Source of the DNA: an uncultured Chloroflexia bacterium
Lineage (GTDB): Bacteria; Chloroflexota; Anaerolineae; Anaerolineales; Anaerolineaceae
Assembly (NCBI GenBank): GCA_963704755.1
Contig: OY969938.1
Span: 1,650,001 to 1,682,000, forward strand
Length of the DNA stretch: 32,000 nucleotides
Reading direction: 5' to 3'
Part shown: positions 1,078 to 23,812 of the stretch, in pieces
How positions within the stretch are numbered: the first letter of the stretch is position 1
How the letters are laid out: each line of letters begins with the position of its first letter
Made by a program: the position numbers and the translations under genes
Notes under the pieces: generated by a model
Told to the model about the DNA's origin: nothing
Seen by the model: the letters and a program-made list of their open reading frames with translations, nothing else
Database searches by the model: none

Positions 1078-1087
1078 GAGGGCAGCC

Positions 1088-1387: not shown

Positions 1388-1492
1388 TATCGCATCTTTC
1401 CGAAGTGGGGATGCATTTCGTCCGATCCGAGTGCGTCCCCACTCCTTTAATTCCTTGGCGGAGGTAACTACTCAGCTACCGCAAAAGAGAAC

Positions 1493-1543
1493 GTGTTTTT
1501 ATCGATTTTCACGTGCTCCGCACGCGAAAATCGATAAAAACAC
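1493..1543. repeat. Long imperfect inverted repeat / stem-loop (23-nt arms, one mismatch, 5-nt loop)
   Basis: gtgtttttatcgattttcAcgtg (1493-1515) pairs with cacgCgaaaatcgataaaaacac (1521-1543). I checked it base by base: the only mismatch is 1511/1525. No U-tract follows, so it is not a canonical intrinsic terminator. Confidence 0.85.
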
Positions 1544-1591
1544 CTCTGATTTCCGAACCAGCCTGAGCAGTAACCACCGGATAAAAAAACG

Positions 1592-1638
1592 AATTTGAGG
1601 TATGGATACGGTCGATGACCGTATCCATACCTCAAATT
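1592..1638. repeat. Perfect 22-bp inverted repeat / stem-loop with a 3-nt loop, 30 nt upstream of the wzm start
   Basis: aatttgaggtatggatacggtc (1592-1613), loop gat, then gaccgtatccatacctcaaatt (1617-1638). The arms are exact reverse complements. It is followed by cagggaac, with no U-tract. Confidence 0.9.
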
Positions 1639-1667
1639 CAGGGAACTCCTGATTAAGAAGAAGGTGC

Positions 1668-2531
1668 ATGATCCAAATCGCTAAAACCCCCTCCTCTCTC
1701 ATCGAAGCATCCGCCCCACCGCATATCCACATCGAACCCATGCGCGGGTGGGTGTCTCTGCAGCTCCATGAACTATGGGCATACCGCGAACTGCTTTATT
1801 TCCTCACCTGGCGGGATGTCAAGGTGCGCTATAAGCAGACTGCCCTGGGCGCTTTGTGGGCTATCCTGGTCCCCGTCCTCAACATGGTGGTTTTCACGAT
1901 CATTTTTGGCAACTTTGCCAAAATGCCCTCGGATGGCATCCCCTACCCGATCTTCAGCTACACGGCTTTATTGCCCTGGACTTATTTTTCCACCTCCCTA
2001 TCCGGCGCCTCGAACAGCCTGCTAGGATCGGCCAGTATGATCACCAAGGTCTATTTCCCCAGGCTGATCGTACCGATATCGAGCGTTTTCTCCGGGTTGA
2101 TCGACTTTGCCTTTGCTTTCCTCGTGATGATCGGCATGATGTTTTTCTATCACACCCAGCCGACCATTTACGTTTTGTTATTACCGCTTTTCTTACTTTT
2201 GGCGTTAATCACTGCGCTGGGTTTCGGGCTGTGGCTTTCGGCATTCAACGTCAAATATCGTGACGTACGCTACATTGTTCCATTCCTGATTCAATTCTGG
2301 AATTTCGCTACCCCGGTTATTTACCCCAGCAGCTTGTTGAGTGAGCCCTGGCGAACGCTTTCGGGTTTGAATCCCATGGTGGGCGTGATCGAAGGCTTCC
2401 GCTGGGCTCTTTTGGGCTCGAAACCGCCCGAGCTGATGATCCTGGTCTCCACAGTCATGGCGATCCTCGTCCTGGTGACCGGGGCCTTTTATTTCCGGCG
2501 CATGGAAAAGAACTTCGCGGACCTGGTGTAA
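1668..2531 (+). CDS. wzm: ABC-2 type polysaccharide/O-antigen export permease (Wzm/TagG family)
   Basis: 287 aa. It carries the hallmark N-terminal block WAYRELLYFLTWRDVKVRYKQTALGALWAILVPVLNMVVFTIIFG followed by about 6 hydrophobic segments. It lies immediately upstream of the cognate ATPase gene. Confidence 0.9.
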   Translation: MIQIAKTPSSLIEASAPPHIHIEPMRGWVSLQLHELWAYRELLYFLTWRDVKVRYKQTALGALWAILVPVLNMVVFTIIFGNFAKMPSDGIPYPIFSYTALLPWTYFSTSLSGASNSLLGSASMITKVYFPRLIVPISSVFSGLIDFAFAFLVMIGMMFFYHTQPTIYVLLLPLFLLLALITALGFGLWLSAFNVKYRDVRYIVPFLIQFWNFATPVIYPSSLLSEPWRTLSGLNPMVGVIEGFRWALLGSKPPELMILVSTVMAILVLVTGAFYFRRMEKNFADLV

Positions 2532-2532
2532 C

Positions 2533-3864
2533 ATGGCAAATCCATACGCGATTCAGGTTCAAAAAATAGGTAAACAATACGATATCAACCAGGCCGGGGA
2601 AGCCAGTTATGACACATTGCGCGATCAAATTGCCCATGCACTGACAGCGCCTGTCCGGCGTGTTTTTGGCAGAAATAATCACACCGACGGCATAACGCAA
2701 AAACGCCACGGCAAGGGCAAAGAGATATTTTGGGCTTTGCGGGATGTCAATTTCAATGTCGAGCCCGGCGAGGTGGTAGGGGTCATCGGCCGCAATGGCG
2801 CCGGCAAGAGCACCTTGTTGAAAATCATCACGCGCATCACCGACCCCAGCGAAGGCTCCATTGACCTGTGGGGGCGGGTGGGCTCTTTGCTCGAAGTCGG
2901 CACCGGCTTTCACAAGGAACTCTCCGGTCGCGAGAACGTCTATCTCAACGGTGCGATTCTGGGCATGAAGCGCACCGAAATCGATCGCAAATTCGACGAG
3001 ATTGTCGCCTTTGCCGAAATCGAAAAGTTCATCGATACCCAGGTGAAATTTTATTCCAGTGGCATGGGCGTCCGGCTGGCTTTTGCGGTCGCGGCGCACC
3101 TCGAGCCTGAAATTCTACTGGTAGATGAAGTTCTGGCGGTAGGCGACGCTGCATTTCAAAAGAAATGCCTGAATAAAATGGAAGACGTTGGCCGCCAGGG
3201 CCGTACCATTCTCTTCGTTTCGCATCACATGCCCTCCATTACCCGCCTGTGCCAGCGCGCCATCCTGTTAGATGGCGGCCATGTGCTTCAAGACGGGCCG
3301 GCCTATCAAGTCGTCAGCGATTACCTGACCAGCGGTTTAGGCACTTCTTCGGAGCGTATTTGGGAAGACAGGATCGATGCCCCCGGCAACGAGATCGTCC
3401 GCCTGAATTCGGTACGGGTGCGCAACAGCCGCGGACAGATCAGCGATACGATCGACATCCACGAACGGGTGGGCATTGAGATGGACTATGAGGTGCTGGT
3501 GGACGGGCAAATCCTCTACCCGCACTTCACCGTCCACAACGAGGAGGGCCAATGGCTGTTCGTCTCCTTCGATACCGATAAAGAATGGCTGCGCAAACCG
3601 CGACCGCGCGGACATTACCAGAGCACCGGCTGGATCCCAGGTAATTTACTCACCGAAGGGACCATGATGATCGGACCGGCTATGCGCACCGAAGAACCTT
3701 ATCGCCTGCACTTTCACGAACGCGACGCAGTCGCCTTTCAGGTGGTGGAAAACAACAATTCCTCGGGTGCCCGGGCCGACCATCCCGGCCATTTTCCCGG
3801 CATTATCCGCCCGCTGCTCGACTGGGAAACCCGTTATCACACCAATGGATCGGGCGGAAAATGA
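2533..3864 (+). CDS. wzt: Polysaccharide ABC exporter ATP-binding protein with a C-terminal Wzt_C-like carbohydrate-binding extension
   Basis: Walker A is GRNGAGKST, the ABC signature is YSSGMGVRLAFA, and Walker B is ILLVDEVLAVGD. About 180 extra C-terminal residues (roughly nt 3325-3861: ...EIVRLNSVRVRNSRGQISDTIDIHERVGIEMDYEVL...AVAFQVVE) have the alternating beta-strand pattern typical of Wzt C-terminal glycan-binding domains. Confidence 0.9.
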   Translation: MANPYAIQVQKIGKQYDINQAGEASYDTLRDQIAHALTAPVRRVFGRNNHTDGITQKRHGKGKEIFWALRDVNFNVEPGEVVGVIGRNGAGKSTLLKIITRITDPSEGSIDLWGRVGSLLEVGTGFHKELSGRENVYLNGAILGMKRTEIDRKFDEIVAFAEIEKFIDTQVKFYSSGMGVRLAFAVAAHLEPEILLVDEVLAVGDAAFQKKCLNKMEDVGRQGRTILFVSHHMPSITRLCQRAILLDGGHVLQDGPAYQVVSDYLTSGLGTSSERIWEDRIDAPGNEIVRLNSVRVRNSRGQISDTIDIHERVGIEMDYEVLVDGQILYPHFTVHNEEGQWLFVSFDTDKEWLRKPRPRGHYQSTGWIPGNLLTEGTMMIGPAMRTEEPYRLHFHERDAVAFQVVENNNSSGARADHPGHFPGIIRPLLDWETRYHTNGSGGK

Positions 3865-4769
3865 ACCCGGCAACTCCGCGGTTAAGCATTGGCCTTCCGG
3901 TTTTCAATGGCGAGCGCTACCTCAGCCAGGCCCTGGATTCGATCCTCGCCCAAAGCTTCCCCGATTTCGAGGTCATCGTTTCAGACAACGCCTCCACCGA
4001 TGCATCCGTCAGCATCGTCGAAACCTACATGGCTCGCGACGGGCGCATCAGCCTGTTCAAAAATTCACCTAACCGCGGGGCTGCCTGGAATTACAACTTC
4101 GTCTTCTCCCAGGCGCGCGGTGAATATTTCAAGTGGGCCGCCCACGACGATTTGTTACAGCCCACTTTTCTGGAGAAGTGCGTCGATATCCTCGACCAGG
4201 ACCCGTCAGTGGTTTTGGTCCATCCCAAAACTAAAATAATCGATGAAAACAGCCAGGTCATCGGTTCCTACGAGACCAGAATGGATACGACCGGGCAGTT
4301 GCCCAGCCAACGTTTTCACGATTTGGTGCTGACCAGGCACCCCTGCACTGCCGCCTTTGGGGTATCGCGCCGCAATATTCTCCAAAAGACACCTCTGATT
4401 GCCTCCTACGTCGGTTCTGACCGGGTGTTACTGGCCGAAATGGGACTTTACGGCCGTCTCATCGAACTGCCGGATTACCTGTTCTATCGCCGGGACCATC
4501 CCGGCGCTTCCATCCGGCGCTTTAATCCGTACGAACGCCAGGCCTGGTTCGATCAAAAGGGTGGACAGCGCGTATCGTTCCCGACCTGGCGGATCGGATG
4601 GGAGTATTTTCGGGCAGTGAACCGCGTCCCGATCGGGCTGCACGAAAAAATCGCATGCTATCGTTTGTTGGCCTTCTGGCTGCGCTGGGACCGTAAACGA
4701 TTAACGCACGACCTTGCCGTAGCCAGCGGACGTCTCATCAAAACCAAAAAGGAGCAGAGGGTACTATGA
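3861..4769 (+). CDS. Glycosyltransferase family 2
   Basis: The GT2 N-terminal signature is LSIGLPVFNGERYLSQALDSILAQSFPDFEVIVSDNASTDAS, and the DxD-like motif is AAHDDL. It has an ATGA overlap with the wzt stop. Confidence 0.88.
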   Translation: MNPATPRLSIGLPVFNGERYLSQALDSILAQSFPDFEVIVSDNASTDASVSIVETYMARDGRISLFKNSPNRGAAWNYNFVFSQARGEYFKWAAHDDLLQPTFLEKCVDILDQDPSVVLVHPKTKIIDENSQVIGSYETRMDTTGQLPSQRFHDLVLTRHPCTAAFGVSRRNILQKTPLIASYVGSDRVLLAEMGLYGRLIELPDYLFYRRDHPGASIRRFNPYERQAWFDQKGGQRVSFPTWRIGWEYFRAVNRVPIGLHEKIACYRLLAFWLRWDRKRLTHDLAVASGRLIKTKKEQRVL

Positions 4770-5539
4770 AAGTAGCAATCCTGGCCGGTGGATATGGATC
4801 CCGTCTGGCGGAAGAAACCGAGATCAAGCCTAAACCGATGGTAGAAATTGGCGGCCACCCGATGTTGTGGCACATCATGCGCTACTACTACTCGTATGGG
4901 TACAAAGATTTCGCGATTGCCCTCGGTTACAAAGGAGAAATCATCAAGCGATACTTTATGGATTACTACACCCTCAACGGCGACATGACCGTTGATTTCA
5001 GAACCGGTTCGGTCAAGTCACAAAACGGCAAGCATCTGGATTGGACCATCGAAATGATCGACACCGGCCAACAGACCCAGACCGGCGGGCGCATCAAACG
5101 CCTGGCGCAGGCCGTGGGCAACGAAACGTTTATGCTCACCTGGGGTGACGGCGTTTCGGACGTGGACCTGGATAAATTACTGGCTTTCCACCGCGCGCAC
5201 GGCAAACTGGCCACCCTCACCGCGGTGCGCCCCCCGGCGCGCTACGGCTACATGAACTTCAATGGTGACCAGGTGGTGGAATTCATGGAAAAAGCCCAAC
5301 TTATGGAAGGTTGGATCAACGGCGCCTTCTTCGTATTGGAACCCGGAATTTTTGATTACATCGATGGCGACGACACAGTCTGGGAGCACGAACCGCTCGA
5401 ACGCCTGGCACATGATGGCCAGTTGATGGCCTACCGGCACGACTCGTTCTGGCAGTGCATGGACACGCTGCGCGAAAAGCACATCCTCGAATCGATCTGG
5501 CAAAGCGGCCATGCTCCCTGGAAAAAATGGGAGGATTAA
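4766..5539 (+). CDS. rfbF: Glucose-1-phosphate cytidylyltransferase (CDP-glucose synthesis)
   Basis: 257 aa. MKVAILAGGYGSRLAEETEIKPKPMVEIGGHPMLWHIMRYYYSYGYKDFAIALGYKG is the characteristic RfbF N-terminus (GGxGxRL nucleotidyltransferase loop). The length is typical for RfbF. It has an ATGA overlap with the upstream GT2. Confidence 0.9.
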   Translation: MKVAILAGGYGSRLAEETEIKPKPMVEIGGHPMLWHIMRYYYSYGYKDFAIALGYKGEIIKRYFMDYYTLNGDMTVDFRTGSVKSQNGKHLDWTIEMIDTGQQTQTGGRIKRLAQAVGNETFMLTWGDGVSDVDLDKLLAFHRAHGKLATLTAVRPPARYGYMNFNGDQVVEFMEKAQLMEGWINGAFFVLEPGIFDYIDGDDTVWEHEPLERLAHDGQLMAYRHDSFWQCMDTLREKHILESIWQSGHAPWKKWED

Positions 5540-5541
5540 AG

Positions 5542-6585
5542 ATGCGCGTTCTTCTTACAGGACATCATGGATACATCGGAACGATTTTAGCGCCTATGTT
5601 ATTGGAAGCCGGCCACGAAGTGGTCGGCCTGGACAGCGACCTTTTTGCGGCCTGCCAGTTCGGCCCCTGGCAAGATCCCGTTCCCTCGATCCACAAGGAT
5701 ATCCGCGACGTTACCGTGGAAGACCTGGACGGGTTCGATGCCGTCCTGCACCTGGCCGGCCTGTCCAACGACCCCCTGGGAGACTTGAACCCCGAGCTGA
5801 CCTACGAAATCAATTACCGCGCCTCGGTCCGCCTGGCCAAGCTGGCCAAACAAGCCGGGGTCGACCGGTTCATCTTCTCCTCATCGTGCAGCAATTACGG
5901 CGCCGCCGGAGACGATTTACTGACCGAAGATGCAGCTTTCAACCCGGTCACGCCCTACGGTAAATCGAAAGTGCTGGTCGAGCAGGATGTGGCGGCCCTG
6001 GCCAACGAGCATTTCTCGCCTGTCTTCCTGCGCAACGCCACCGCTTACGGGGTTTCGCCCTTCCTGCGCTTCGACCTGGTGCTCAACAACCTGGTCGCCT
6101 GGGCTTTTACCACCGGCAAAGTTTACCTCAAGAGCGACGGCTCGCCCTGGCGCCCGGTAGTTCATATCGAAGATATCTCGCGCGCATTTGTGGCTGCCCT
6201 GCAGGCCCCGCGGCAGATCGTCCATAACCAGGCCTTCAACGTGGGCCGCACCACTGAAAACTACCGCGTTTCCGAGATCGCCCAAATCGTCTCCGAAACG
6301 GTACCGGGCTGCCGGGTTGAATACGCTCCCGATGCCGGGCCGGATAAACGCAATTACCGGGTGGACTGCACCAGGATCAGCCAGGTTTTGCCCGAATTCC
6401 AGCCGCAGTGGACCGTCCGCAAGGGCGCCCAGGAGCTTTACGAGGCCTATACTCGTATCGGCGTTACCCTGGAAGACTTCGAAGGGCCGCATTTCAAACG
6501 CCTCGCCCACATTCGCCAATTGCTGGCCAACGACCAACTGGATACTGCTCTGCGCTGGAATCAAAAAGAGCCGCAAAAGACTTAA
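5542..6585 (+). CDS. NAD-dependent epimerase/dehydratase (extended SDR) acting on a nucleotide sugar; exact reaction unknown
   Basis: I placed the start at ATG 5542, which is preceded by GGAGGA. The 5455 ORF extension overlaps rfbF. It has the Rossmann motif LLTGHHGYIGT and the catalytic YxxxK as PYGKSK. It does not show the TGxTGFKG / YSxSK pattern I associate with canonical CDP-glucose 4,6-dehydratase RfbG. Confidence 0.85.
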   Translation: MRVLLTGHHGYIGTILAPMLLEAGHEVVGLDSDLFAACQFGPWQDPVPSIHKDIRDVTVEDLDGFDAVLHLAGLSNDPLGDLNPELTYEINYRASVRLAKLAKQAGVDRFIFSSSCSNYGAAGDDLLTEDAAFNPVTPYGKSKVLVEQDVAALANEHFSPVFLRNATAYGVSPFLRFDLVLNNLVAWAFTTGKVYLKSDGSPWRPVVHIEDISRAFVAALQAPRQIVHNQAFNVGRTTENYRVSEIAQIVSETVPGCRVEYAPDAGPDKRNYRVDCTRISQVLPEFQPQWTVRKGAQELYEAYTRIGVTLEDFEGPHFKRLAHIRQLLANDQLDTALRWNQKEPQKT

Positions 6586-7844: not shown

Positions 7845-7872
7845 AAGGACCCATCGAAACGCGAATTTTATC

Positions 7873-12575: not shown

Positions 12576-13838
12576 ATGGATGAGCAAACTCTAGAATTAA
12601 CCCAGGCCGCCCCCTACCGCATCGAGCCAGTCTGCCGATCTTGCGGATCTGGTCATCTAGTCAAGATTATGTCCTTTGGACAGACCCCCCTGGCCGACCG
12701 TCTGGTGACGCCGGAGCAACTGGATTCACCAGACCTTGTCGCTCCTCTGGATTTGTTTTTCTGCCCCGACTGCTCGCTGGTTCAAATCTCGGCCACCGTT
12801 GAACCAGACGTGCTCTTTGGACAGAATTATCCCTATTTTTCTTCAGTTTCCGCCACCTTGATGCAGCATTCGCGTGAAAACGCGCTCGAACTGATCGAAA
12901 AACGGAACCTGGGACCCAACAGCCTGGTGATCGAACCGGCCAGTAACGACGGCTACATGCTGCGCAATTTCGTCGAAGCCGGTATTCCCGTCCTCGGCAT
13001 CGACCCGGCCAGCGGCCCGGCCAGCGTGGCCCAGGCCTCCGGTGTTCCTACCCTGAACACATTCTTCGGGTTGAAACTTGCCAAAGAACTGGCCCGCCAG
13101 AATACATTCGCCGATGTGATCATTGCCAACAACGTTTTGGCCCATGTCGCCGACCTGAACGGCTTCGTCGAGGGGGTCAAGACCGTCCTCAAGCCAGACG
13201 GGGTTGCCGTCATGGAAATGCCTTACGTGGCCGACCTGATCGGCAAGACCGAGTTCGACACGATTTATCACCAACATCTGTGCTACTTCTCGATCACCGC
13301 CCTCGATCGCTTATTCCGCTCGCACGGCCTGTTCCTCAATGACGTACGCCGTCTCTCAATTCACGGGGGTTCGTTACGGCTATATGTCGAAAAAACCGAT
13401 AACCAGTCCGCGTTTGTGCGGGGCTTGCTGCGGGACGAGAGCCAGGGAGCGGCCTGCCTGGAGTATTACCAGGCATTCGCTGCCCGTGTCGCAAAGATCC
13501 GCGCGGACCTGAATGCCTTACTGAGCGACCTCAAAGGACAAGGCGCCCGGATCGCAGCGTATGGTGCTGCTGCCAAAGCCTGCACTCTTCTGGCCTACTG
13601 CCAGGTGGATGCGCGCTCCATCGATTATGTCGCGGACCTGAATACACATAAACATGGCCTGTTCATGGGCGGGAATCATCTCCCGATTGTTCCTGCAAAT
13701 AAGCTGGCTGCCGACCAACCCGACTATGTTTTACTCCTGGCATGGAATTTTGCAGATGAAATCCTGAAACAACAAAAGGATTATCGCGACCAGGGAGGAA
13801 AATTCATCGTACCCATCCCGCAAGTACGGGTAATCTGA
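12576..13838 (+). CDS. SAM-dependent NDP-sugar C-methyltransferase family protein (TylC3-like; Zn-ribbon + class I MT + C-terminal MT-associated domain)
   Basis: The N-terminal four-Cys pattern is CRSCGSGHL...[11 protein letters not shown]. The SAM motif is of the E-P-A-S-N-D-G type ([12 protein letters not shown]), followed by ANNVLAHV and then YHQHLCYFS. The C-terminal Rossmann-like block is [14 protein letters not shown]...[11 protein letters not shown]. Confidence 0.85.
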
Positions 13839-13839: not shown

Positions 13840-14958
13840 TTGCAAAAAACAATTTACAAAACTTATCGCTATATCCGCTCAAAGGCTGGCTACGTGAAAC
13901 GACAATTAATCAAACCCAATGACAATGCTGAATGGACTGAAGGCCTTCCCCCAGGTTTTTCACCCCAATTTTTGGAACGGGGTAATCATAAAATAAATGA
14001 AAAACAACTTAAGCGCGCAAAATTCAAGCACCTCTCCGGATGGAAAGAGGCAGGTGCCTATCGCATAGAAATCCCCCTGAGCCGTGGAAATAAATGGCGT
14101 CTGGTTTTCAAAGACGCGAATTACCACACGGACCAGCTTCCGGCGCTTAAGGGATTGCCTTATATTCCCGGGCCACCCGAATATGCATTGTTCCATCACC
14201 CACCCCAAGCGCTTTCCGCATTTCTTCCCCAATGCCTCTGGGCAGAAGAGACCGAGCCCGGCAAACGCTACCGTTACCTTTTCGAAGACCTGACCGGTGA
14301 ATTCGGCCGGATCCGGGGTGACGAGGGTTTGCTCAAAGCCGTCCACATGCTCCTGCCGCTGCAAAACGCCTTGCAGGACTGGCAGCCAGGATCCGACGAT
14401 AACCTGCTGCACTACAGCGGGGCTTCGGTCCGGGCTCTTGAAGAGTATGTATTCCATTCGATCAGCCGCTATTGCGAACAATATCCGGGTGATACCGTAA
14501 CCGACTTTCTCCATCGCTGGCCTGAGATTCTCAAGGTCCACGAGCTGTTCGAGCGAATTCCGGCCTTTGATAGCACTGTCGTCCACGGCGATCTGAATAC
14601 CACCAACATCTACGTTCACAAGGAAGACCCCAGCATATTTCGCCTGGTGGACTGGGAATGGGCCGGTTGGGGGAACCCCCATCTGGACCTGGCCTGTTTA
14701 CTCAAACGGGTCAGCCCTGAATTCGAAGAAAAGGCCTTACAGGTTTATGCCCAAGACCGCCCGGCGACAACCTTGTTCGAACATCAATTCGCCTACCACT
14801 GGCATCAATTGGACCGCGGTCTTCTGGACGCCAGCTATGTTGCCGCTCAAATTCTGGACAATCCATATCGGCCAGATTGGGACATCGTCGGCTTCATGGA
14901 AGATTCGCTTAGCGAAGTTATCCGCCGCACACAAATTCTCCTTTCCCTCTCAGGTTGA
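13840..14958 (+). CDS. Aminoglycoside-phosphotransferase/choline-kinase-fold kinase (APH family)
   Basis: 372 aa with a TTG start 1 nt after the preceding stop. The Brenner motif HGDLNTTN is at about nt 14584, followed by the metal-binding LVDWEWAGWGNPHLDLA. Confidence 0.75.
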   Translation: MQKTIYKTYRYIRSKAGYVKRQLIKPNDNAEWTEGLPPGFSPQFLERGNHKINEKQLKRAKFKHLSGWKEAGAYRIEIPLSRGNKWRLVFKDANYHTDQLPALKGLPYIPGPPEYALFHHPPQALSAFLPQCLWAEETEPGKRYRYLFEDLTGEFGRIRGDEGLLKAVHMLLPLQNALQDWQPGSDDNLLHYSGASVRALEEYVFHSISRYCEQYPGDTVTDFLHRWPEILKVHELFERIPAFDSTVVHGDLNTTNIYVHKEDPSIFRLVDWEWAGWGNPHLDLACLLKRVSPEFEEKALQVYAQDRPATTLFEHQFAYHWHQLDRGLLDASYVAAQILDNPYRPDWDIVGFMEDSLSEVIRRTQILLSLSG

Positions 14959-14964: not shown

Positions 14965-16014
14965 TTGTTAGACACCAACGACTTCATCATTTGGAATCTC
15001 ACCCACCAGCAGACCGTTACAATCGGCTCACAGTCTCTTTTCAACATTCTTGGCCGGCTCAAAAATCCACTAATCGTCCTGGAGTTTTATTTCCGGGTCA
15101 ACCAGGGCGAAGAAAAGACCATACTGTTCAACATTAGCGACCGAAATTATGGCCGGCTGGAGCGGACAGGCGACTTTAACATCAATTCGATCGACATAAG
15201 TGAACTCAAAGAGACCAACCAGCTATACCTGCGGGTGGAGTATGAAGACCATTGCGAAGAAACATCCATCATTTTTCATACTCGCCGGGTCGAGATCGAA
15301 CAGCCTCGGTTTACGCTCAATTTGGACGGCATTGGTGAACCGCAGGAAGTTGGCCAGGTGGTGGACGGTTACTGGCAGGTCGATCACAGCTCGAGCGCAA
15401 CGCCCAATATCTATGTCCCCCCGGCCGAAGCCGGGTATGACCGGATTTTCCTCTTCGGCAGCCAGCAGTGGACCAGCGGCTACCAAATCACGGCCCGTCT
15501 GGAAGCAACCGCCTGGGCCCACCGGGTTCACCTGTTGGGGCTGCTGTTCAAATGGCAAGCTCACGACAAAGGCGACGGCAGCTATCTCCCGCTAAACTGG
15601 AATACCGGCCTGGGCATCTTTGATTCCCGCAGCGAGACGTTACGAATTCGCTACGGCGTGAACGTGCGCAAGGAAAATGGCCACAAAGTTGGCGATACCC
15701 TGGTCGGTGAAGCTCCCCTGGATCCCACCAGCGCTTCGTCTTTTTCCAAATCGCGTTTTAACATACTGCGCCGTGAACCCAGGCGGGATTACCTGGAACT
15801 AAAAAGACCATACTGGTTCCACCTGATCGTTCACCCCCAAATCCATTCTCTGGCCGTCTGGGCGGATGATTGCCAGCGCCCGGCTAAACCGCAGGTTGTG
15901 ATCAAGAATCCCACCGAATTGTTATCTTTTGGCTCTGTTGGGGTTATTGCCTATAACTGTGGAATACGGATTTATAACTTCGAAGTCAGCCCATACAACC
16001 CACTTTTGCCGTAG
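14965..16014 (+). CDS. Hypothetical cytoplasmic protein; C-terminal concanavalin-A-like (LamG/DUF1080-like) beta-sandwich suspected
   Basis: 349 aa with a TTG start and no signal peptide or TM segment. The C-terminal 220 aa show a DUF1080-like progression (DGYWQVD ... YQITARLEA ... LLGLLFKW ... WFHLIVHP...LAVWADD ... GSVGVIAYNCGIRIYNFEV). The fold call is by eye only. Confidence 0.4.
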   Translation: MLDTNDFIIWNLTHQQTVTIGSQSLFNILGRLKNPLIVLEFYFRVNQGEEKTILFNISDRNYGRLERTGDFNINSIDISELKETNQLYLRVEYEDHCEETSIIFHTRRVEIEQPRFTLNLDGIGEPQEVGQVVDGYWQVDHSSSATPNIYVPPAEAGYDRIFLFGSQQWTSGYQITARLEATAWAHRVHLLGLLFKWQAHDKGDGSYLPLNWNTGLGIFDSRSETLRIRYGVNVRKENGHKVGDTLVGEAPLDPTSASSFSKSRFNILRREPRRDYLELKRPYWFHLIVHPQIHSLAVWADDCQRPAKPQVVIKNPTELLSFGSVGVIAYNCGIRIYNFEVSPYNPLLP

Positions 16015-16142: not shown

Positions 16143-17384
16143 ATGAAATCGTTCCAACCCAATGCCACCACCGTGACCCGCTATGGAACCCATAACCTGA
16201 TCGACCAGAGCTGCCCGAACTGTGGCGCGTTCAGTATGCGTGGTTTCTACGCCGCCCGTAATGTTCCCATTAACGACGTCCGGGTCGTCCACAGCCGCCA
16301 GGAAGCATTGGATTTTCCGCGGGGCGATATTCACCTGGCTTACTGCTGGAAATGCGGCTTCATTACCAACGTTTCTTTCGACCCGGCTACGGTCACTTAC
16401 TCGCCAGAGTTCGAGGAAACCCAGGGCTATTCGGATACGTTCAACGCCTTCCACCAACGCCTGGCCACCTACCTGATCGACAATTACGACTTGCACGAAA
16501 AGAAAATTCTGGAGATCGGCTGCGGTAAAGGCGAATTTCTGGCGATGTTATGCGAAGCCGGTAACAACAGCGGGATCGGCTTCGACCCGGCCTTCGTCCC
16601 CGAACGCAAGCCGCAGATCAGCCGCGGCCAGGTTGAATATATTGCCGACCTGTACTCCGAAAAATACGCCGACATCGAAGCCGACTTCGTGGTCTGCAAG
16701 ATGACCCTCGAACACATTCCCCAGACGCGCGAATTCGTCAGCACGCTCCGCCGGGCCTTGGGCGACCGCGGTGAGACCGGGGTCTTCTTCCAAATTCCGG
16801 AAGTGTTCCGCATCCTACGCGAGCTGGCTTTCTGGGACATCTATTACGAACATTGCTCATATTTCAGCGCCGGCTCGCTCGCCCGGCTTTTCCGCAAGTG
16901 CGGCTTCGATGTGCTGGACCTGTGGACCGACTACGACGACCAGTACCTGATGATCGAAGCCCGGCCCGGCGTAAGCGGCCCGCTGATCCCGCCCCTGCCC
17001 CAGGAGGACGACCTGCCCCAGCTTTTCCCCCTGGCCGGGTATTTCTCCCAATCGGTCAAGACTTGCTTGCAGACCTGGCAAACCCGCATCAGCGAATACC
17101 ATCGCGACGGCCTGCACGTGGTCCTGTGGGGCGGCGGATCCAAAGCCGTGGCCTTCCTCTCCACCCTGGGCATCGCGGAAGAGATCGAATATGTGGTGGA
17201 TATCAACCCGCACAAACACGGCTCTTTCATCGCCGGCTCCGGGCAAGAGGTGGTCGCTCCGGAATTTATGAAAGAATACCACCCCGATATCGTCATCGTC
17301 ATGAATCCGGTATATGTGGAAGAGATCCGCGCCACTTTAGCCGAGATGGACCTCAGCCCCGTTCTGGTGCCGGTCAATGAGTGA
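16143..17384 (+). CDS. Zn-ribbon SAM-dependent methyltransferase (C-methyltransferase-like architecture), tandem paralogue A
   Basis: 413 aa. Motifs are CPNCG...CWKCGFITN, SAM motif ILEIGCGKGEFL, GFDP, CKMTLEHI, FQIPE, WDIYYEH, and a C-terminal VVLWGGGSKAVAFL...DIVIVMNPVY. Confidence 0.8.
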   Translation: MKSFQPNATTVTRYGTHNLIDQSCPNCGAFSMRGFYAARNVPINDVRVVHSRQEALDFPRGDIHLAYCWKCGFITNVSFDPATVTYSPEFEETQGYSDTFNAFHQRLATYLIDNYDLHEKKILEIGCGKGEFLAMLCEAGNNSGIGFDPAFVPERKPQISRGQVEYIADLYSEKYADIEADFVVCKMTLEHIPQTREFVSTLRRALGDRGETGVFFQIPEVFRILRELAFWDIYYEHCSYFSAGSLARLFRKCGFDVLDLWTDYDDQYLMIEARPGVSGPLIPPLPQEDDLPQLFPLAGYFSQSVKTCLQTWQTRISEYHRDGLHVVLWGGGSKAVAFLSTLGIAEEIEYVVDINPHKHGSFIAGSGQEVVAPEFMKEYHPDIVIVMNPVYVEEIRATLAEMDLSPVLVPVNE

Positions 17385-18606
17385 GCCAGTTCCCTCCCAC
17401 ACCGCTGTGAATCAGTCGCTGCCCGGCAAGTGCCCGGTGTGCAACTCGGCGGACACGCGCATTTTCTTCGAGGTCGGCCAGATGCCGGTTCACTGCAACC
17501 GCTTATGGGAACGTTACGACGACGCGATCGATGCGCCTAAAGGTGACCTGCGCCTGGCTTTTTGCCAGCACTGCGGGCACGTATTCAACACCGCCTTCGA
17601 TCCCGAACTGGTAATGTATTCCGCCGGCTACGAAAATTCCCTGCATTTTTCGCCTCACTTTCAAGCCTACGCCAACAGCATTGCGCACCAGTTGATCGAA
17701 CGCTACGATTTGCACCACAAAGAGATCATCGAGATCGGCAGCGGCCAGGGCGATTTCCTCGCCCTGTTATGCGAGCAAGGCGACAACCACGGCATTGGTT
17801 TCGACCCCAGCTTTACCGGTTCCCCGGCCGGCGCGCCGGGCAGTACCCGGGTCGATACGATCCGCGATTATTACTCAGAAAATTATGCCCATTTCCAGGC
17901 CGATTTGATCTGCTGCCGCCAGACCTTGGAGCACATTTACAACCCGGCCGAATTTCTGGCGACCGTCCGCCGCTCGATCGGCGACCGGACCGGCACGGTG
18001 GTTTTCTTCGAAGTGCCCAACGTGCGCTATACCTTGCACGGGCTTTCGATCTGGGACGTCATTTACGAGCATTATTCTTTCTTCAGCGCGCCCTCCCTGC
18101 GCTACCTGTTCACTTCCAACGGCTTCCAGGTCCTGCACCTGGAGGAGACATTTGGCGGCCAATACCTGACCATCGAAGCCATACCGGTCCCCGACGGCTC
18201 TCCGCTTGCTGGAGACTCCGGCAATGAAGATGGCATCGCGGAACTATCCAGAGATGTGGACCGCTACCGCCAGAATTTCACCGAAAAAGTGGGTTACTGG
18301 CAATCGCAACTGGCCTCGATCCGCATGGCAGGCAAATGCGCTGTGGTCTGGAGCGCCGGCTCCAAGGGGGTTACGTTCCTGAATACCCTCAAAACGCCGG
18401 GAGCGATCCAAAATGTCATCGATATCAATCCGCGAAAACATAATCGTTACATCGCCGGCAGCGGGCATCTGATCATCTCCCCTGATAAATTATCCGCGCT
18501 GCAGCCCGATGTGGTGATCGTGATGAACCCGGTTTATTTGGACGAAATCCGCCAGGATTTGCATGAAAAAGGGCTTTCGCCAGAATTGATGGTCGTCAAT
18601 GAATGA
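17377..18606 (+). CDS. Zn-ribbon SAM-dependent methyltransferase, tandem paralogue B
   Basis: 409 aa. Motifs are CPVCN...CQHCGHVFN, IIEIGSGQGDFL, GFDP, CRQTLEHI, FEVPN, WDVIYEH and AVVWSAGSKGVTFL...DVVIVMNPVY. It has an 8-nt overlap (ATGAGTGA) with paralogue A. Confidence 0.8.
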   Translation: MSEPVPSHTAVNQSLPGKCPVCNSADTRIFFEVGQMPVHCNRLWERYDDAIDAPKGDLRLAFCQHCGHVFNTAFDPELVMYSAGYENSLHFSPHFQAYANSIAHQLIERYDLHHKEIIEIGSGQGDFLALLCEQGDNHGIGFDPSFTGSPAGAPGSTRVDTIRDYYSENYAHFQADLICCRQTLEHIYNPAEFLATVRRSIGDRTGTVVFFEVPNVRYTLHGLSIWDVIYEHYSFFSAPSLRYLFTSNGFQVLHLEETFGGQYLTIEAIPVPDGSPLAGDSGNEDGIAELSRDVDRYRQNFTEKVGYWQSQLASIRMAGKCAVVWSAGSKGVTFLNTLKTPGAIQNVIDINPRKHNRYIAGSGHLIISPDKLSALQPDVVIVMNPVYLDEIRQDLHEKGLSPELMVVNE

Positions 18607-19831
18607 TAAAACAGGGGTGTCCGTTTATCACAAAGTACGCATCAACACCAGCGGCAAGAAACAGTGCCCAATTTGCACCAATGGCAATATCCGCACTTTC
18701 CTGGAAACCGGACCGATACCAATTCATACCCAGTTGCTCTGGCAAAAAAGAGAGGATGCGGTCAGCGCGCCAATGGGCGATTTTTTGCTGGGCTACTGTG
18801 AGAGCTGCGGGCATATCTTCAACACATCCTTCAATTCAGACCTGCTGCATTACAGCCAATGGTTCGAAAATTCGCTCCACCCCGCTTCCCGTTTCCAGTC
18901 CTTTAGCCGTCTCGAGATCGATCACCTGGTCGAAAAATATGGACTGCACGCCAAGGCAGTCCTGCAAATCGGCAAAGGGACGGGTGATTATGCCCTGCTG
19001 CTCTCCGAACTGGCCGAGAACCAGGCCACCATCTTCGAGCCCTGCGACAGCGACGGCTATACGACCCCTTCCGGCCTGGAGTTCGAGACCCAAATCCGTG
19101 GCTGCGCCGGCGAGCCCTTCTCGCGCTACCAACCCGACTTCATCTGCTGCCAGGACGCCCTGGAAGAAGCCCAACGCCCGCGTGAGTTCATCACCAATCT
19201 GCGCCACGCGATCGGTGAGCGTTACACCACGGTCGGCTACTTCCAGGTAGCCGATGGACTGGCGATGCTGCAAGAGGATCCCTTCAAAGTCTTCAATTAC
19301 GAGCATTTCTCGCTGTTCACCCCTTCCTCCCTGGGAACTTTATTCGCATCCAATAGTTTCCAAATCTTGCAGCAGCGCTCCCTACCTGAGGAGAGGATGT
19401 TGATTGTCGAGGTCAGCCCGGTTTTGGAAAGCAGCCGGACGGGGAACATAGATGCCCTCTACGATTTGAACAACGTCGCCAAAGAAGTCAAAGAGATCCA
19501 GAAACGGTTCCTGGAATGGATTGCTACCCTCAAAGAGCGCTTGAGCGACTTGAACAACGCCGGAAAGAAAGTGGCCTTTTGGGGCGCCGGCCCGCGTGGC
19601 ACCACCATTCTGAACGTTTTACACGCTCACGAGACCGTCCAGGTCGTCATCGACCCGGATTTCAACAAGGAAGATCTGCATGTACCGGGCACCGGCCACC
19701 GCATCGTCACCCCCGGCCACCTGGTTTCACTCAAGCCAGACGTTTTGCTGATATCCGATCCGGTCCATGACCAGGAAATCCGCTTCCTCGTCTCGGCCAT
19801 GCAATTATCCCCCGAGTTCATCACCATATAA
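18599..19831 (+). CDS. Zn-ribbon methyltransferase-like protein, tandem paralogue C (divergent at several conserved positions)
   Basis: 410 aa and colinear with A and B (CPICT...CESCGHIFN). Differences from A/B are QIGKGTG instead of EIGxGxG, IFEP for GFDP, ALEEA for TLEHI, FQVAD for F(Q/E)(I/V)P(E/N), and FNYEH for IYEH. It has an 8-nt overlap (ATGAATGA) with paralogue B. Confidence 0.7.
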   Translation: MNDKTGVSVYHKVRINTSGKKQCPICTNGNIRTFLETGPIPIHTQLLWQKREDAVSAPMGDFLLGYCESCGHIFNTSFNSDLLHYSQWFENSLHPASRFQSFSRLEIDHLVEKYGLHAKAVLQIGKGTGDYALLLSELAENQATIFEPCDSDGYTTPSGLEFETQIRGCAGEPFSRYQPDFICCQDALEEAQRPREFITNLRHAIGERYTTVGYFQVADGLAMLQEDPFKVFNYEHFSLFTPSSLGTLFASNSFQILQQRSLPEERMLIVEVSPVLESSRTGNIDALYDLNNVAKEVKEIQKRFLEWIATLKERLSDLNNAGKKVAFWGAGPRGTTILNVLHAHETVQVVIDPDFNKEDLHVPGTGHRIVTPGHLVSLKPDVLLISDPVHDQEIRFLVSAMQLSPEFITI

Positions 19832-19860: not shown

Positions 19861-20943
19861 ATGCGCTTCTATTTTGCCAACGCCACTTTCAGGAAGGCCA
19901 ATTCACGTGGGCGAAACGTCCACATCCATCAATTTATAGCCAGTTCGCTCGAGCTGGGCCACGAAATATGGATGGAACCGGACTGCGAACACCCCGGGAT
20001 CAAGTTGCTGCCCAAAGGCAGACTGCCCCGCCTGGCCGCCTTACGGCGCATGGACAGTATTTACATCCGCCTGCAGGACAGCCCCCCGGACGTCTGCCGC
20101 TATGGGGTGGCCCCCTATCACCAACTGGCCGGATCGCCCCTGGTCGTCTGGGAATTCAACACGGTGCCGGAGTTTTCTCAGATCATGAACCACAGCCAGG
20201 AGCGCCTGCAAAACGACCTGGCCAGGTTCCGGAATTACGGCCGCGGCTGTGACCTGGCCGTGTGCGTCTCCCAAAAACTGGCCGAATATGTTCAGGAACG
20301 CCTGGGTATTCATACCACCCTGGTCGTTCCCAATGGCTCCGACCCCGGGCTGTTCCTGCCCAAGTCCAAATTCACCCCGGCCATCCTGGTGAACCCGCAC
20401 AAACTCAATATCGTCTGGGTCGGCAGCGCCGATCTGGGCTGGCACAATTTCAAACAAATGCTCGCGGCCGGCAGAATTCTCACCGCACGCGGATTGAAAG
20501 AGCGGTTCACCTTCCACATCATCGGCAAAGACCTGCCCGAATCCGAACCCTGGGAAGATAACGTCATCTATCACGGGCCCATCCCCTACGAAGAACTGCC
20601 CGGCTGGCTGGCCGCCATGGACGTGGGGTTAGTGCTCTATCACAGCGGGGTCGCGGACTACAACTCGCCCCTCAAATTTTACGATTACCTGGCCAGTGAG
20701 CTGGCGGTCGTCTCCAGCGAACAGCCCCAGGTACGGGAAGTACTCGAGACGATCCAGGCCGCTGACCTGCTGGTACCCTGTGATGATGCCACCGCCCTGG
20801 CCGACGTCCTCGAGAAATTGGAGCAGGACCGCAGCCGGGTCCGCAACCTGGGCAGCGCCGGCCGCCAGAAAGTGATCGAGCAATACAACTGGCAGCGCGC
20901 CGCTCGCGATACGCACAACCGCATCGCCGAACTGCTCTCCTGA
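19861..20943 (+). CDS. Glycosyltransferase, GT-B fold (GT4-like)
   Basis: 360 aa. The C-terminal half is typical of GT4: NIVWVGSADLGWHNF...FHIIGKD...YHGPIPYEELPGWLAAMDVGL...SPLKFYDYLASELAVVSS...AGRQKVIEQYNWQRAA. Confidence 0.78.
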   Translation: MRFYFANATFRKANSRGRNVHIHQFIASSLELGHEIWMEPDCEHPGIKLLPKGRLPRLAALRRMDSIYIRLQDSPPDVCRYGVAPYHQLAGSPLVVWEFNTVPEFSQIMNHSQERLQNDLARFRNYGRGCDLAVCVSQKLAEYVQERLGIHTTLVVPNGSDPGLFLPKSKFTPAILVNPHKLNIVWVGSADLGWHNFKQMLAAGRILTARGLKERFTFHIIGKDLPESEPWEDNVIYHGPIPYEELPGWLAAMDVGLVLYHSGVADYNSPLKFYDYLASELAVVSSEQPQVREVLETIQAADLLVPCDDATALADVLEKLEQDRSRVRNLGSAGRQKVIEQYNWQRAARDTHNRIAELLS

Positions 20944-21023
20944 TCGGTAAGCCGGTGCCCGGTTTTTGGCGGACTGAAACCGCCCAAAATCCCGCAGCGA
21001 ATCTTTCCCGGTTTCCCCAAAAT

Positions 21024-23811: not shown

Positions 23812-23812
23812 T

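Follow-up and report, generated by a model that had tools for sequence, protein, structure and literature searches.

Introduction

All characterised Wzt_C domains recognise a terminal cap at the non-reducing end of the exported glycan (PMC9445017; PMC11231755). The caps known for ABC-transporter-dependent glycans are limited to methyl, methyl-phosphate and Kdo, and come from a few proteobacterial systems and Aquifex (PMC9445017; PMC11231755). In the WzmWzt transporter of Aquifex aeolicus, where the cap is a 3-O-methyl mannose/rhamnose, Leu300 and His350 of Wzt are cap-pocket residues and Trp362 is the lid of the 3-O-methyl pocket (PMC9445017). The other described systems closest to the locus studied here are Escherichia coli O9a and Klebsiella pneumoniae O3, with WbdD (PMC3482155; PMC11231755); K. 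pneumoniae O12 and Raoultella terrigena, with the GT99 beta-Kdo terminator WbbB (PMC9587256); and K. pneumoniae O4, with the GT137 alpha-Kdo terminator ORF7, which is reported to have a non-canonical two-domain topology and a TPR-like bundle and to match no glycosyltransferase structure (PMC11231755). A coiled coil is a consistent feature of published terminators and is typically followed by an amphipathic helix (PMC11231755).

Here, we analyse a locus encoding Wzm, Wzt and a large set of glycan genes in a 32,000-nt stretch of DNA (the whole of it hereafter referred to as the window; Table 1), and compare it with related loci, denoted by L and a number.

Results

Domain structure of Wzt

Wzt is a 443-aa ORF (2533–3864), and wzm stops 2 nt 5' of its start. 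Wzm has four TM-like segments, and the upstream neighbour of wzt in related loci is likewise a Wzm homologue, 63–71% identical. The nucleotide-binding domain (NBD) is matched by Pfam ABC_tran with E 1.1e-21, its top PDB match being A. aeolicus Wzt (8dku, E 2.6e-67).

Table 1. Features of the locus, with coordinates in the window.
Feature	Coordinates	Strand	Evidence
Wzm, ABC-2 permease partner of Wzt	1668..2531	+	Pfam ABC2_membrane, E 2.3e-18
Wzt nucleotide-binding domain, residues 1-261	2533..3315	+	Pfam ABC_tran, residues 69-200
Wzt carbohydrate-binding domain (CBD), residues 262-443	3316..3864	+	Pfam Wzt_C, AlphaFold2, Foldseek
GT2a, GT2 glycosyltransferase	3861..4769	+	Pfam Glycos_transf_2, E 5e-28
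Glucose-1-phosphate cytidylyltransferase (CDP-glucose synthesis)	4766..5539	+	NCBIfam TIGR02623
GalE-like SDR, epimerase/oxidoreductase type	5542..6585	+	Pfam Epimerase
MT1, nucleotide-hexose 3-C-methyltransferase homologue	12576..13838	+	Pfam Methyltransf_13/23/14
APH-fold kinase	13840..14958; alternative start 13894	+	Pfam APH, E 5e-11
349-aa protein (unk14965) travelling with the kinase	14965..16014	+	Gene neighbourhood
MT2, MT3, MT4, sugar C-methyltransferase paralogues	16143..19831	+	Pfam Methyltransf_23 and Methyltransf_14
GT4a and GT2b, glycosyltransferases, first genes of the higher-GC block	19861..22061	+	Pfam
kdsB, kpsF/kdsD (probable start 22822), kdsA	22058..24670	+	NCBIfam
P421, GT-B glycosyltransferase, 421 aa	24672..25937	+	AlphaFold2 model, Foldseek
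GT4b, GT4c, polysaccharide deacetylase, GT4d	25934..30243	+	Pfam
Wzy_C-family membrane protein	30204..31682	+	Pfam Wzy_C, E 1e-10

The C-terminal extension is confirmed as a genuine Wzt_C-type domain. The initial annotation had placed about 180 residues of a glycan-binding type at 3325–3864 (residues ~265–443), and both the position and the nature of the domain proved correct. The Pfam Wzt_C profile (PF14524) matches residues 285–409 with 31.6 bits, a narrow margin above the gathering cut-off of 30.4 (E 1.8e-7). Residues 262–443, modelled as a monomer by AlphaFold2 from 51 homologues, form an 11-strand beta-sandwich (mean pLDDT 87.6, pTM 0.84). In a Foldseek search of the PDB with this model, each of the best 16 matches is a Wzt carbohydrate-binding domain. 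The domains matched include those of A. aeolicus (6o14, 8dky, 8dl0; E 2e-7 to 2e-6, TM 0.74 on target), E. coli O9a (2r5o, E 3e-6) and R. terrigena O12 (5hno/5hnp, E 1e-5), and the alignment of the CBD family profile with A. aeolicus Wzt extends as far as chain position 372 (E 1.6e-21). A search of the PDB with the single CBD sequence yields nothing meaningful (best E 0.33), since identity to the solved domains is only 11–20%, and hence the homology is established via Pfam, the family profile and the fold comparison. The domain thereby combines the features of a Wzt_C domain: a profile match above the cut-off, fusion to a Wzt ATPase encoded beside Wzm, and the beta-sandwich. Residues W277, G360, P369-G370-N371, G376, F402, R414, R426-P427, L429 and W431 are invariant in the family, the last four of them belonging to the conserved C-terminal strand R426-P427-x-L429-x-W431, present in the CBD of the window. 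Wzt_C domains form dimers in which C-terminal strands are exchanged.

This branch of CBDs comprises 569 representative clusters at E<=1e-10. The nearest relatives of the locus come from Thermanaerothrix and other Anaerolineae, with 70–77% identity in Wzm, the Wzt NBD, the cytidylyltransferase, the SDR and MT1. LPS is not known to be made by Chloroflexota.

Nucleotide-sugar methylation genes and the kinase

The cytidylyltransferase scores 355 bits against TIGR02623 (cut-off 300). The top PDB match of the SDR is 6vo6 (E 3.5e-32); it has the SSS...YGKSK motif, lacks TDE and is not a 4,6-dehydratase. MT1 aligns over residues 16–419 with the mycarose 3-C-methyltransferase (4rv9, E 2.2e-83), also matches TcaB9 and KijD1, and shows, along with this full-length homology, the Zn-binding N-domain, the SAM domain and the C-terminal domain of TylC3 and TcaB9. 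These enzymes and KijD1 act on dTDP-4-keto-6-deoxy sugars in antibiotic pathways. The top PDB matches of MT2 are KijD1, TylC3 and TcaB9 (E 7e-15), and WbdD is not among the PDB matches of MT1 (E limit 0.001) or MT2 (E limit 1).

The CDP-glucose synthase, the SDR and three methyltransferases constitute a conserved cassette, which occurs also without any Wzt: Wzt is present in 0 of 35 cassette loci, the SDR in all 35, and in cassette loci with neither Wzt nor kinase MT2 and MT3 are found in 28/29 and 24/29 cases, respectively. A fourth methyltransferase paralogue, which the generic cassette does not need, is found in the window and in L169. GT2a is a candidate transferase for the cassette sugar. 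Its homologues (44–53% identity) come after wzt in related loci, and 11 of 52 cassette loci lacking Wzt have one (at least 35% identity) immediately 5' of the cytidylyltransferase gene. In the literature searched, no paper turned up on a 3-C-methyl cap, or on a CDP-glucose pathway with a C-methyltransferase, such as that of cereose.

The stand-alone APH-fold kinase, reported in the initial annotation and indeed recognised by Pfam, retains intact catalytic motifs HGDLNTTN and DWE. All seven kinase-bearing loci (the window, L169, L006, L014, L030, L170, L171) have Wzm, Wzt with the CBD and the cassette, whereas the kinase occurs in none of the 35 cassette loci lacking Wzt; the kinase thus may take part in cap formation and is a candidate cap-modifying enzyme. 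Searches of Pfam (up to E 10), NCBIfam and the PDB with the adjacent 349-aa protein are all negative; its homologues adjoin the kinase or stand near it in L006, L014, L030, L169 and L171. A Flg_new_2 domain is present in the L030 relative, and in L170 and L171 the corresponding place is taken by Flg_new_2 proteins. The kinase and the methyltransferases flanking it had been likened to a split WbdD, and this likeness did not hold. With the kinase as query, phmmer retrieves from the whole set of PDB sequences (E<=10) only APH-type phosphotransferases and no WbdD, and the methyltransferases are of the TylC3/TcaB9 type and belong to the conserved cassette. The kinase homology, the methyltransferase acting on the polymer end or on phosphate and, by a crude heptad scan, the extended coiled coil with a membrane helix that characterise WbdD are all lacking.

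The Kdo genes and P421

At about 20 kb, the GC content climbs from ~0.54 to ~0.61, which fits a mosaic of two modules. GT4a and GT2b, at the start of the higher-GC block, have no counterpart in L170 and L171, which are syntenic but lack Kdo genes. The products of kdsB, kpsF/kdsD and kdsA all score above the NCBIfam cut-offs (KdsB 295 bits, KpsF 280 bits, KDO8P synthase 392 bits), and no KdsC homologue is encoded in the 32,000-nt window; hence the CMP-Kdo supply module, previously described as complete, is present but not complete.

P421 begins at 24672 rather than at 24507. The initial annotation regarded it as a coiled-coil-tailed GT-B protein resembling WbbB, and the first half of this description stands: the AlphaFold2 model (pLDDT 87.8) has one GT-B module and no TPR-like bundle, and at the C-terminus a heptad helix or coiled coil (359–396, ~35 residues) precedes an amphipathic helix (399–413). 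By a crude heptad scan, it is the only coiled coil of the window, none being predicted in the kinase, the 349-aa protein or MT1–4. The resemblance to WbbB, on the other hand, was not supported. P421 has no significant Pfam match (DUF6716, E 0.017, is below the cut-off) and none in NCBIfam; its single sequence has no PDB match at E<=10, and its 49-sequence profile finds in the PDB one non-significant chance match, an iron-binding protein (E 0.12). The 50 Foldseek matches listed are of the canonical GT-B type (SenB, TagF, UDP-GlcNAc 2-epimerases, BshA), and WbbB, KpsC and WaaA are not among them. Assignment of P421 to the families of these three proteins was therefore rejected on single-sequence, profile and Foldseek data, and neither its sequence nor its profile shows similarity to GT99, GT107 or GT30; the sequence homology, the modified fold and the coil-linked polymerase modules within one protein, by which GT99/WbbB is recognised, are lacking in P421.

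Homologues of P421 adjoin Kdo genes in L002-4, L167, L168, L169 and L172/3, kpsF only in L005, and no Kdo genes in L174/5. L002-4, the nearest relatives, are Kdo-bearing and kinase-less; they were not recovered by the metagenome scan with the cytidylyltransferase. In L174, which retains GT2b (adjoining P421), P421, GT4b, GT4c and Wzy_C and has no cassette, the CBD is only 28% identical to that of the window, whereas the NBD is 57% identical. In L005, P421 resides inside a Wzx flippase locus with no Wzm/Wzt within 10 kb. Conversely, L006, L170 and L171, with CBDs 44–62% identical, keep the cassette, the kinase, GT2a, GT4b/c and Wzy_C, and have neither Kdo genes nor P421. GT4b and GT4c (46–56% identity) follow either P421 or directly the cassette in L005, L170, L171 and L174, and the Wzy_C protein, with about 10 TM-like segments, is found at the same position in L002-4, L006, L167, L170, L171 and L174. 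Judging from gene content, the block of GT2b, P421, GT4b, GT4c and Wzy_C is separable from the window-type Wzt CBD. P421 is probably a Kdo-related transferase of this conserved base block, and the Wzy_C protein is probably a ligase moving the exported glycan onto its acceptor.

Gene neighbourhoods of the CBD subfamily

We compared 80 loci chosen solely by CBD similarity (45–62% identity) from roughly ten or more phylum-level groups, with flanks of 10 kb; the counts use the 63 loci with at least 3 kb downstream. The comparison revealed a third candidate for the cap, missed in the initial annotation, namely, the CDP-hexose methylation cassette, which co-travels with the CBD subfamily. In favour of a cap derived from it, the cytidylyltransferase is present in 46 of the 63 loci and is the next gene, starting at most 200 nt from the end of wzt, in 39 of 55; MT1 is present in 42 of the 63. 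Neither Kdo genes nor P421 were found within the 10-kb flanks of the 80 loci, a scan that misses window-like layouts, as kdsB of the window lies 18 kb from wzt.

The remaining 17 of the 63 loci have no cassette within 10 kb, which speaks against such a cap. Their neighbours are heterogeneous, with no common gene family beyond Wzm and Wzt; their CBDs share the same 52 conserved columns, and no CBD column separates cassette-bearing from cassette-less loci.

Positions differing between locus types

Only three columns of the CBD alignment, 333, 385 and 406, separate kinase-bearing from kinase-less cassette loci. Position 333 is mostly T in the former and H in the latter, and position 385 is R in six out of six kinase-bearing loci and S in 89% of kinase-less cassette loci. 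By the profile alignment, at 18–20% identity, T333 corresponds to Leu300 and R385 to His350 of A. aeolicus Wzt, that is, to residues of its cap pocket. The motif R385-T386-E387 is common to the Kdo loci (the window and L169) and the Kdo-less loci L006, L014, L030, L170 and L171. Arg385 is also found in L010, L022, L029 and L078, with no kinase in the full 10-kb downstream flank, which counts against a kinase-modified cassette sugar as the ligand. Since positions 333 and 385, predicted to lie in the pocket, vary with the type of locus, the assumption that CBDs of 45–62% identity share one ligand was dropped.

Discussion

Possible ligands of the domain

Taken together, the comparisons with related loci suggest that the ligand of the CBD is a methylated and probably phosphorylated sugar, produced by genes in its neighbourhood, and is neither Kdo nor an E. 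coli-type methyl-phosphate. We consider the chances of such a cap, a methylated and probably phosphorylated hexose derived from the cassette, to be about even. In this reading, the locus encodes an ABC-transporter-dependent glycan pathway, with the chain assembled in the cytoplasm and the CBD binding its non-reducing end and thereby licensing export; comparative genomics indicates that this end would be made by the genes adjacent to wzt rather than by the Kdo block. The cytidylyltransferase, the GalE-like SDR and the TylC3/TcaB9-type methyltransferases are predicted to yield a methylated CDP-hexose, GT2a probably transfers this sugar, and in this lineage the APH kinase and its 349-aa partner probably phosphorylate the terminal residue, with Arg385 and Thr333 at positions predicted to be equivalent to the cap-contacting residues of Aquifex. 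The Kdo genes and P421, as parts of a separable base block of higher GC content (GT2b, P421, GT4b, GT4c, Wzy_C), more likely participate in building a conserved inner or linker part of the glycan and in ligating the product. Two further observations weaken this proposal: the sole coiled coil of the window is on P421, while published terminators all have one, and the kinase loci come from related lineages and thus are not independent.

The best surviving alternative, which we regard as unlikely, is that the cassette sugar is an ordinary part of the repeat unit or of a side chain and the kinase serves sugar activation or decoration, while the CBD recognises an internal epitope or some other target, such as a cap whose genes lie elsewhere, or serves mainly dimerisation and regulation. 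It would agree with the usual occurrence of the cassette without Wzt, by which the cassette sugar is not cap-specific, with the quarter of the CBD subfamily that has the same conserved columns and no cassette nearby, and with the shared gene set having no canonical coiled-coil terminator. However, the immediate adjacency of wzt and the cytidylyltransferase recurs in 39 loci from many phyla, the alignment columns distinguishing the locus types map to positions predicted to form the cap pocket, and all Wzt_C domains characterised so far recognise a terminal cap (PMC9445017; PMC11231755).

An O9a-type cap, with the stand-alone kinase phosphorylating the terminal sugar and a flanking methyltransferase methylating the phosphate, appears improbable. 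The intact motifs of the kinase and its restriction to Wzt-bearing loci, the presence in every kinase locus of Arg385, at a position predicted to contact the cap, and the extra methyltransferase paralogue in the window and L169 are consistent with it, and K. pneumoniae O7 builds methyl-phosphate terminators from unrelated kinase folds (PMC11231755). On the other hand, MT1 and MT2 match nucleotide-sugar C-methyltransferases only; MT2 and MT3, being common in loci with neither kinase nor Wzt, are not kinase partners; four kinase loci (L006, L030, L170, L171) have only three methyltransferases; and neither WbdD similarity nor a coiled coil is seen in the kinase or the methyltransferases.

Finally, a terminal Kdo, added by P421 from CMP-Kdo provided by kdsB, kpsF and kdsA so as to stop elongation and be read by the CBD, following the logic of O12 WbbB or O4 ORF7, is very improbable: the position of P421 directly after kdsA and beside Kdo genes in other loci, its terminator-like tail (PMC11231755) and its lack of a family assignment, as with ORF7 before characterisation (PMC11231755), are outweighed by the Kdo-less loci L006, L170 and L171 with R385-T386-E387, by the drop in CBD identity where P421 is kept and the cassette replaced (L174), by P421 in the Wzx locus L005 and away from Kdo genes in L174/5, by the absence of GT99, GT107 or GT30 similarity, by canonical GT-B matches in Foldseek, GT137 being reported to match no glycosyltransferase, and by the short coil with no attached polymerase module.

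Returning to the cassette-derived cap, we tentatively propose that it may represent an undescribed class, found in lineages such as Chloroflexota: a CDP-glucose-derived, C-methyl-branched hexose, possibly phosphorylated by a stand-alone APH kinase in loci of the Anaerolineae/KSB1 type, with position 385 (Arg, Ser or variable) acting as a specificity switch and with no coiled-coil terminator. If true, this would add a new cap chemistry, identify a mutable specificity-determining residue and provide a case in which chains are terminated with no coiled-coil ruler. The window is an entry to a widespread, unstudied cap-reading branch, present in Chloroflexota, Acidobacteriota, KSB1 and others, which is genetically linked to a cassette for nucleotide-sugar methylation and, within a single lineage, also to a kinase. 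For annotation, it means that the presence of Kdo genes and methyltransferases close to a Wzt domain is not enough to identify the cap.

Comparison with known systems

MT1 shares the full three-domain architecture of TylC3, TcaB9 and KijD1 (4rv9, 3ndi, 5t64), and MT2–MT4 are diverged paralogues. MT1 differs in its partners, a CDP-glucose synthase together with a GalE-like SDR lacking the 4,6-dehydratase motif, and in its setting, a surface-glycan locus.

Like ORF7 of K. pneumoniae O4, P421 is an unassigned, CMP-Kdo-associated transferase with a C-terminal coiled coil, encoded in an ABC-transporter locus with a Wzt domain; its strong matches to canonical GT-B enzymes are unlike what is described for GT137 (PMC11231755). 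With the O12 system of K. pneumoniae and R. terrigena (5hno; PMC9587256), the window shares the Wzt_C fold, the CMP-Kdo genes and a coiled-coil glycosyltransferase, but P421 lacks similarity to GT99 in sequence and profile searches, is not fused to polymerase modules and has a coil of ~35 residues, and the Kdo block is missing from syntenic loci with the CBD signature of the window.

Similarly to E. coli O9a and K. pneumoniae O3 (2r5o; PMC3482155; PMC11231755), the locus combines a Wzt_C domain with a kinase that may generate a phosphate-containing cap. Unlike WbdD, this kinase stands alone and has the APH fold; it neither matches WbdD nor carries a coiled-coil ruler. The methyltransferases are homologues of nucleotide-sugar C-methyltransferases, and the CBDs are 12% identical.

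The best match to the window Wzt in both sequence and fold is the A. aeolicus WzmWzt (6o14, 8dky, 8dku; PMC9445017), with the same Wzm–Wzt(NBD–CBD) architecture, an NBD-fused beta-sandwich and the reading of a methylated terminal sugar, predicted in the case of the window. The two CBDs are only 18–20% identical; Trp362 of the A. aeolicus pocket aligns to His395, and His350 to Arg385. Instead of 3-O-methyl mannose/rhamnose, the genes of the window point to a CDP-derived, C-methyltransferase-dependent sugar accompanied by a kinase.

Organization of the locus

A single long glycan locus with all genes on the + strand occupies the window, where neither an initiating phosphoglycosyl transferase nor kdsC was found. 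The GC content is 0.47–0.59 over positions 1–19000 versus 0.59–0.63 over 20000–30000, and its step from ~0.54 to ~0.61 at about 19.8–20 kb, the start of GT4a, suggests a two-module mosaic.

Genes of the glycan locus, in order along the window
Gene or product	Positions	Strand	Comment
Signal-peptide protein	106-1077	+
Wzm, ABC exporter permease	1668-2531	+
Wzt, ABC exporter ATPase	2533-3864	+
GT2a, GT2 glycosyltransferase	3861-4769	+
Glucose-1-phosphate cytidylyltransferase	4766-5539	+
GalE-like SDR	5542-6585	+	Most likely start 5542
Two FemAB-like (Acetyltransf_6) proteins, 273-aa protein, AsnB-like amidotransferase	6669-12464	+
MT1, methyltransferase	12576-13838	+
APH-fold kinase	13840-14958	+
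unk14965	14965-16014	+
MT2, MT3, MT4, methyltransferases	16143-19831	+
GT4a, GT2b	19861-22061	+
kdsB, kpsF/kdsD, kdsA	22058-24670	+	kpsF start most likely 22822
P421, GT-B protein (421 aa)	24672-25937	+
GT4b, GT4c, deacetylase, GT4d	25934-30243	+
Wzy_C-family membrane protein	30204-31682	+

Between the SDR and MT1, the locus has an insert made up of the FemAB-like pair, the 273-aa protein and the AsnB-like amidotransferase, and GC falls to 0.47 at 9–10 kb. The insert, also seen in the related locus L169 and, in more distant versions, in Thermanaerothrix loci L008, L009 and L012, may contribute a decoration of the aminoacyl or amide type. The signal-peptide protein is conserved 5' of wzm in Thermanaerothrix loci (31–33% identity) and resembles (48%, over one third of its length) part of a 535-aa protein following wzt in locus L174.

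The C-terminal domain of Wzt

The glycan-binding-type C-terminal domain assigned to Wzt in the initial annotation is upheld: Pfam Wzt_C matches residues 285–409 above its cut-off (31.6 versus 30.4 bits, E 1.8e-7), and the AlphaFold2 model of the domain, built from a 51-sequence alignment, is a confident beta-sandwich (pLDDT 87.6). In a fold search against the PDB, its best 16 hits are without exception carbohydrate-binding domains of Wzt proteins: those of A. aeolicus (8dky, with bound 3-O-methyl-mannose, among them), E. coli O9a, and R. terrigena O12. The single domain sequence has no match in PDB; the alignment of the family profile to A. aeolicus Wzt runs through the domain (E 1.6e-21). Since in all characterised systems a domain of this type reads a non-reducing-end cap and controls export (PMC9445017; PMC11231755), it is reasonable to infer that the chain is capped. 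This is a large family (representative clusters: 1399 at E<=1e-3, 569 at E<=1e-10), and the Wzt described here is an entry point into a widespread, unstudied branch of cap-reading domains.

Our preferred candidate, for which belief and doubt are about evenly balanced, is a methylated hexose derived from the cassette (the cytidylyltransferase, SDR, and MT1–MT3), probably phosphorylated by the kinase. GT2a would transfer this hexose to the chain as the cap, the APH-fold kinase would probably phosphorylate it, the Kdo/P421 block would build a conserved inner part of the glycan, and the Wzy_C protein would ligate the product.

Gene content of related loci

Searching species-representative genomes with the alignment of the domain yielded 367 loci, of which the best 80 (45–62% identical), from Chloroflexota, Acidobacteriota, KSB1, Planctomycetota, Nitrospirota, Gemmatimonadota, and others, were analysed within 10-kb flanks. 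Among loci with at least 3 kb downstream (n = 63), the cytidylyltransferase is present in 46, beginning less than 200 nt from the wzt end in 39 out of 55, MT1 in 42, and the kinase in three; Kdo genes and P421 occur in none of the best 80 within these flanks. In Acidobacteriota (locus L035), the domain is accompanied by a CDP-glucose 4,6-dehydratase-like SDR, MT1, a 3,5-epimerase, a reductase, and two O-methyltransferases. The cassette is not nearby in a quarter of the domain subfamily, which, like the 10-kb reach of the flanks, is a weakness of the cassette-derived cap, and we leave a minor but real share of probability to the domain reading something else.

The closest domain (62%) belongs to L006, a compact locus running from an initiating transferase through Wzy_C, with the cassette, the kinase, and unk14965, and without Kdo genes. 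L170 and L171 have the order Wzm, Wzt, GT2a, cytidylyltransferase, SDR, MT1, two Flg_new_2 proteins, MT2, kinase, MT3, GT4b, GT4c, Wzy_C, and also lack Kdo genes and P421; the kinase locus L169 is syntenic with the window, Kdo genes included. L174/5 keep GT2b, P421, GT4b, GT4c, and Wzy_C, and have pyruvyl- and methyltransferases instead of adjacent Kdo genes and the cassette; compared with the window Wzt, their domain is only 28% identical versus 57% for the nucleotide-binding part (residues 1–261). Judged by these gene contents, the domain sequence follows the wzt-proximal module, not P421.

Two further loci have domains 51% identical to that of the window. L001 (ERZ25039469:contig_179130) carries sulfotransferases and an ATP-sulfurylase/APS-kinase fusion beside the domain; the cassette is missing from the part of the flank that is available, and the cap may be of a sulfate type. 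L033 (CAWACJ010000006.1, labelled Methanocellaceae archaeon) has Wzm, Wzt, cytidylyltransferase, and MT1, explained either by acquisition of the genes by an archaeon or by misbinning of the contig.

Signature of the binding pocket

Fifty-two columns are conserved across the kinase-bearing, Acidobacteria-type, and cassette-less groups, and three alone (333, 385, 406) split kinase-bearing from kinase-less cassette loci. Position 333 is Thr in the former versus His in the latter; position 385 is Arg in six out of six kinase-bearing loci, which are related, versus Ser in 89% of kinase-less ones, and is hypervariable (15 residue types) in cassette-less loci. In a remote profile alignment, 333 and 385 correspond to Leu300 and His350 of A. 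aeolicus Wzt, and 386–389 to its trap loop, all being cap-contacting elements (PMC9445017). Taken together, the column differences and this alignment suggest that the pocket location is conserved, that specificity differs by locus type, and that the basic residue goes with the kinase. R385-T386-E387 is common to loci with and without Kdo genes; two kinase-less loci near L006 have Thr or Leu at 385, and Arg385 also occurs in four loci without the kinase across the full 10-kb flank.

The cassette and the kinase

Along its entire length, MT1 aligns with D-mycarose 3-C-methyltransferase, TcaB9, and KijD1 (E 2e-83), and MT2 hits these three proteins more weakly (E 7e-15); MT3 and MT4 combine Methyltransf_23 with Methyltransf_14. 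The SDR has a GalE-like SSS...YGKSK motif without the dehydratase TDE, 6vo6 being its closest solved relative. A metagenome scan with the cytidylyltransferase (loci L086–L165) revealed a tight, widespread operon of the cytidylyltransferase, SDR, MT1, MT2, and MT3, with three to four TylC3/TcaB9-like methyltransferases: among loci with sufficient flank, SDR is found in 35/35, MT1 in 33/35, MT2 in 28/29, and MT3 in 24/29, and Wzm, the Wzt domain, the kinase, and Kdo genes in 0/35 each. As the cassette recurs without Wzm, Wzt, and the kinase, its methyltransferases are, by homology and context, members of a nucleotide-sugar pathway that serves loci with an ABC exporter as well as loci lacking one, not WbdD-type polymer-end enzymes; the operon could be an undescribed route to a multiply methylated CDP-hexose.

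The kinase looks competent, its motifs HGDLNTTN and DWE being intact, and in an O9a-style methyl-phosphate cap pathway such an enzyme would act with the flanking methyltransferases, the set having been likened to a split WbdD, the O9a terminator. This likeness is not supported, given the C-methyltransferase homology of MT1/MT2, the exporter-free cassette loci, and a kinase matching only APH-type phosphotransferases, not WbdD, among PDB sequences at E<=10; we consider such a cap improbable.

The Kdo genes and P421

The conserved start of P421 is the ATG at 24672 (MAEIVVLG), a longer mechanical ORF from 24507 overlapping kdsA by 164 nt. Searches of Pfam, NCBIfam, and PDB sequences gave nothing significant for P421, also when a 49-sequence profile was used. 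The model (pLDDT 87.8) shows a GT-B fold, then a heptad helix (359–396) and an amphipathic helix (399–413), and matches canonical GT-B enzymes, e.g., SenB, TagF, and UDP-GlcNAc 2-epimerases, with WbbB, KpsC, and WaaA absent among the 50 fold matches listed. Its proposed likeness to WbbB, the O12 beta-Kdo terminator, is thus rejected. The Kdo supply, previously called complete, comprises kdsB, kpsF, and kdsA, without kdsC in the window. P421 stands beside complete Kdo modules in L167, L168, and L172/3, with kdsB, kpsF, and kdsA in L002–4 and L169, and with kpsF as the only Kdo gene in L005, a Wzx locus without Wzm/Wzt within 10 kb. We regard a Kdo cap as very unlikely. No protein of the window other than P421 bears a coiled coil, which weakens the cassette-derived cap and favours a terminator role for P421 because terminators consistently have one (PMC11231755), but this real coiled coil is short and is kept in homologues whatever the export route.

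Blocks homologous to the Kdo block of the window include kdsC in L167, L168, and L172. The nearest relatives of the locus are from Anaerolineae (Chloroflexota), usually regarded as lacking LPS; the window still has kdsB, kpsF, kdsA, and a probable Wzy_C ligase.

Comparison with known terminators

The K. pneumoniae O4 Kdo terminator (GT137) is described as having a TPR-like bundle and no glycosyltransferase matches (PMC11231755), a description that differs from P421, with GT-B matches and no such bundle in its model. Unlike WbdD of E. coli O9a, the window kinase has no coiled coil and no WbdD similarity. It travels with unk14965 (349 aa; no match in Pfam, NCBIfam, or PDB), whose relatives lie in L006 (10569–11615) and L030 (14653–16125, with a Flg_new_2, or InlB B-repeat, domain); Flg_new_2 proteins take its position in L170 (6145–8760) and L171. 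This protein might assist the kinase by binding glycan, comparable with the CBM described for the O7 terminator of K. pneumoniae.
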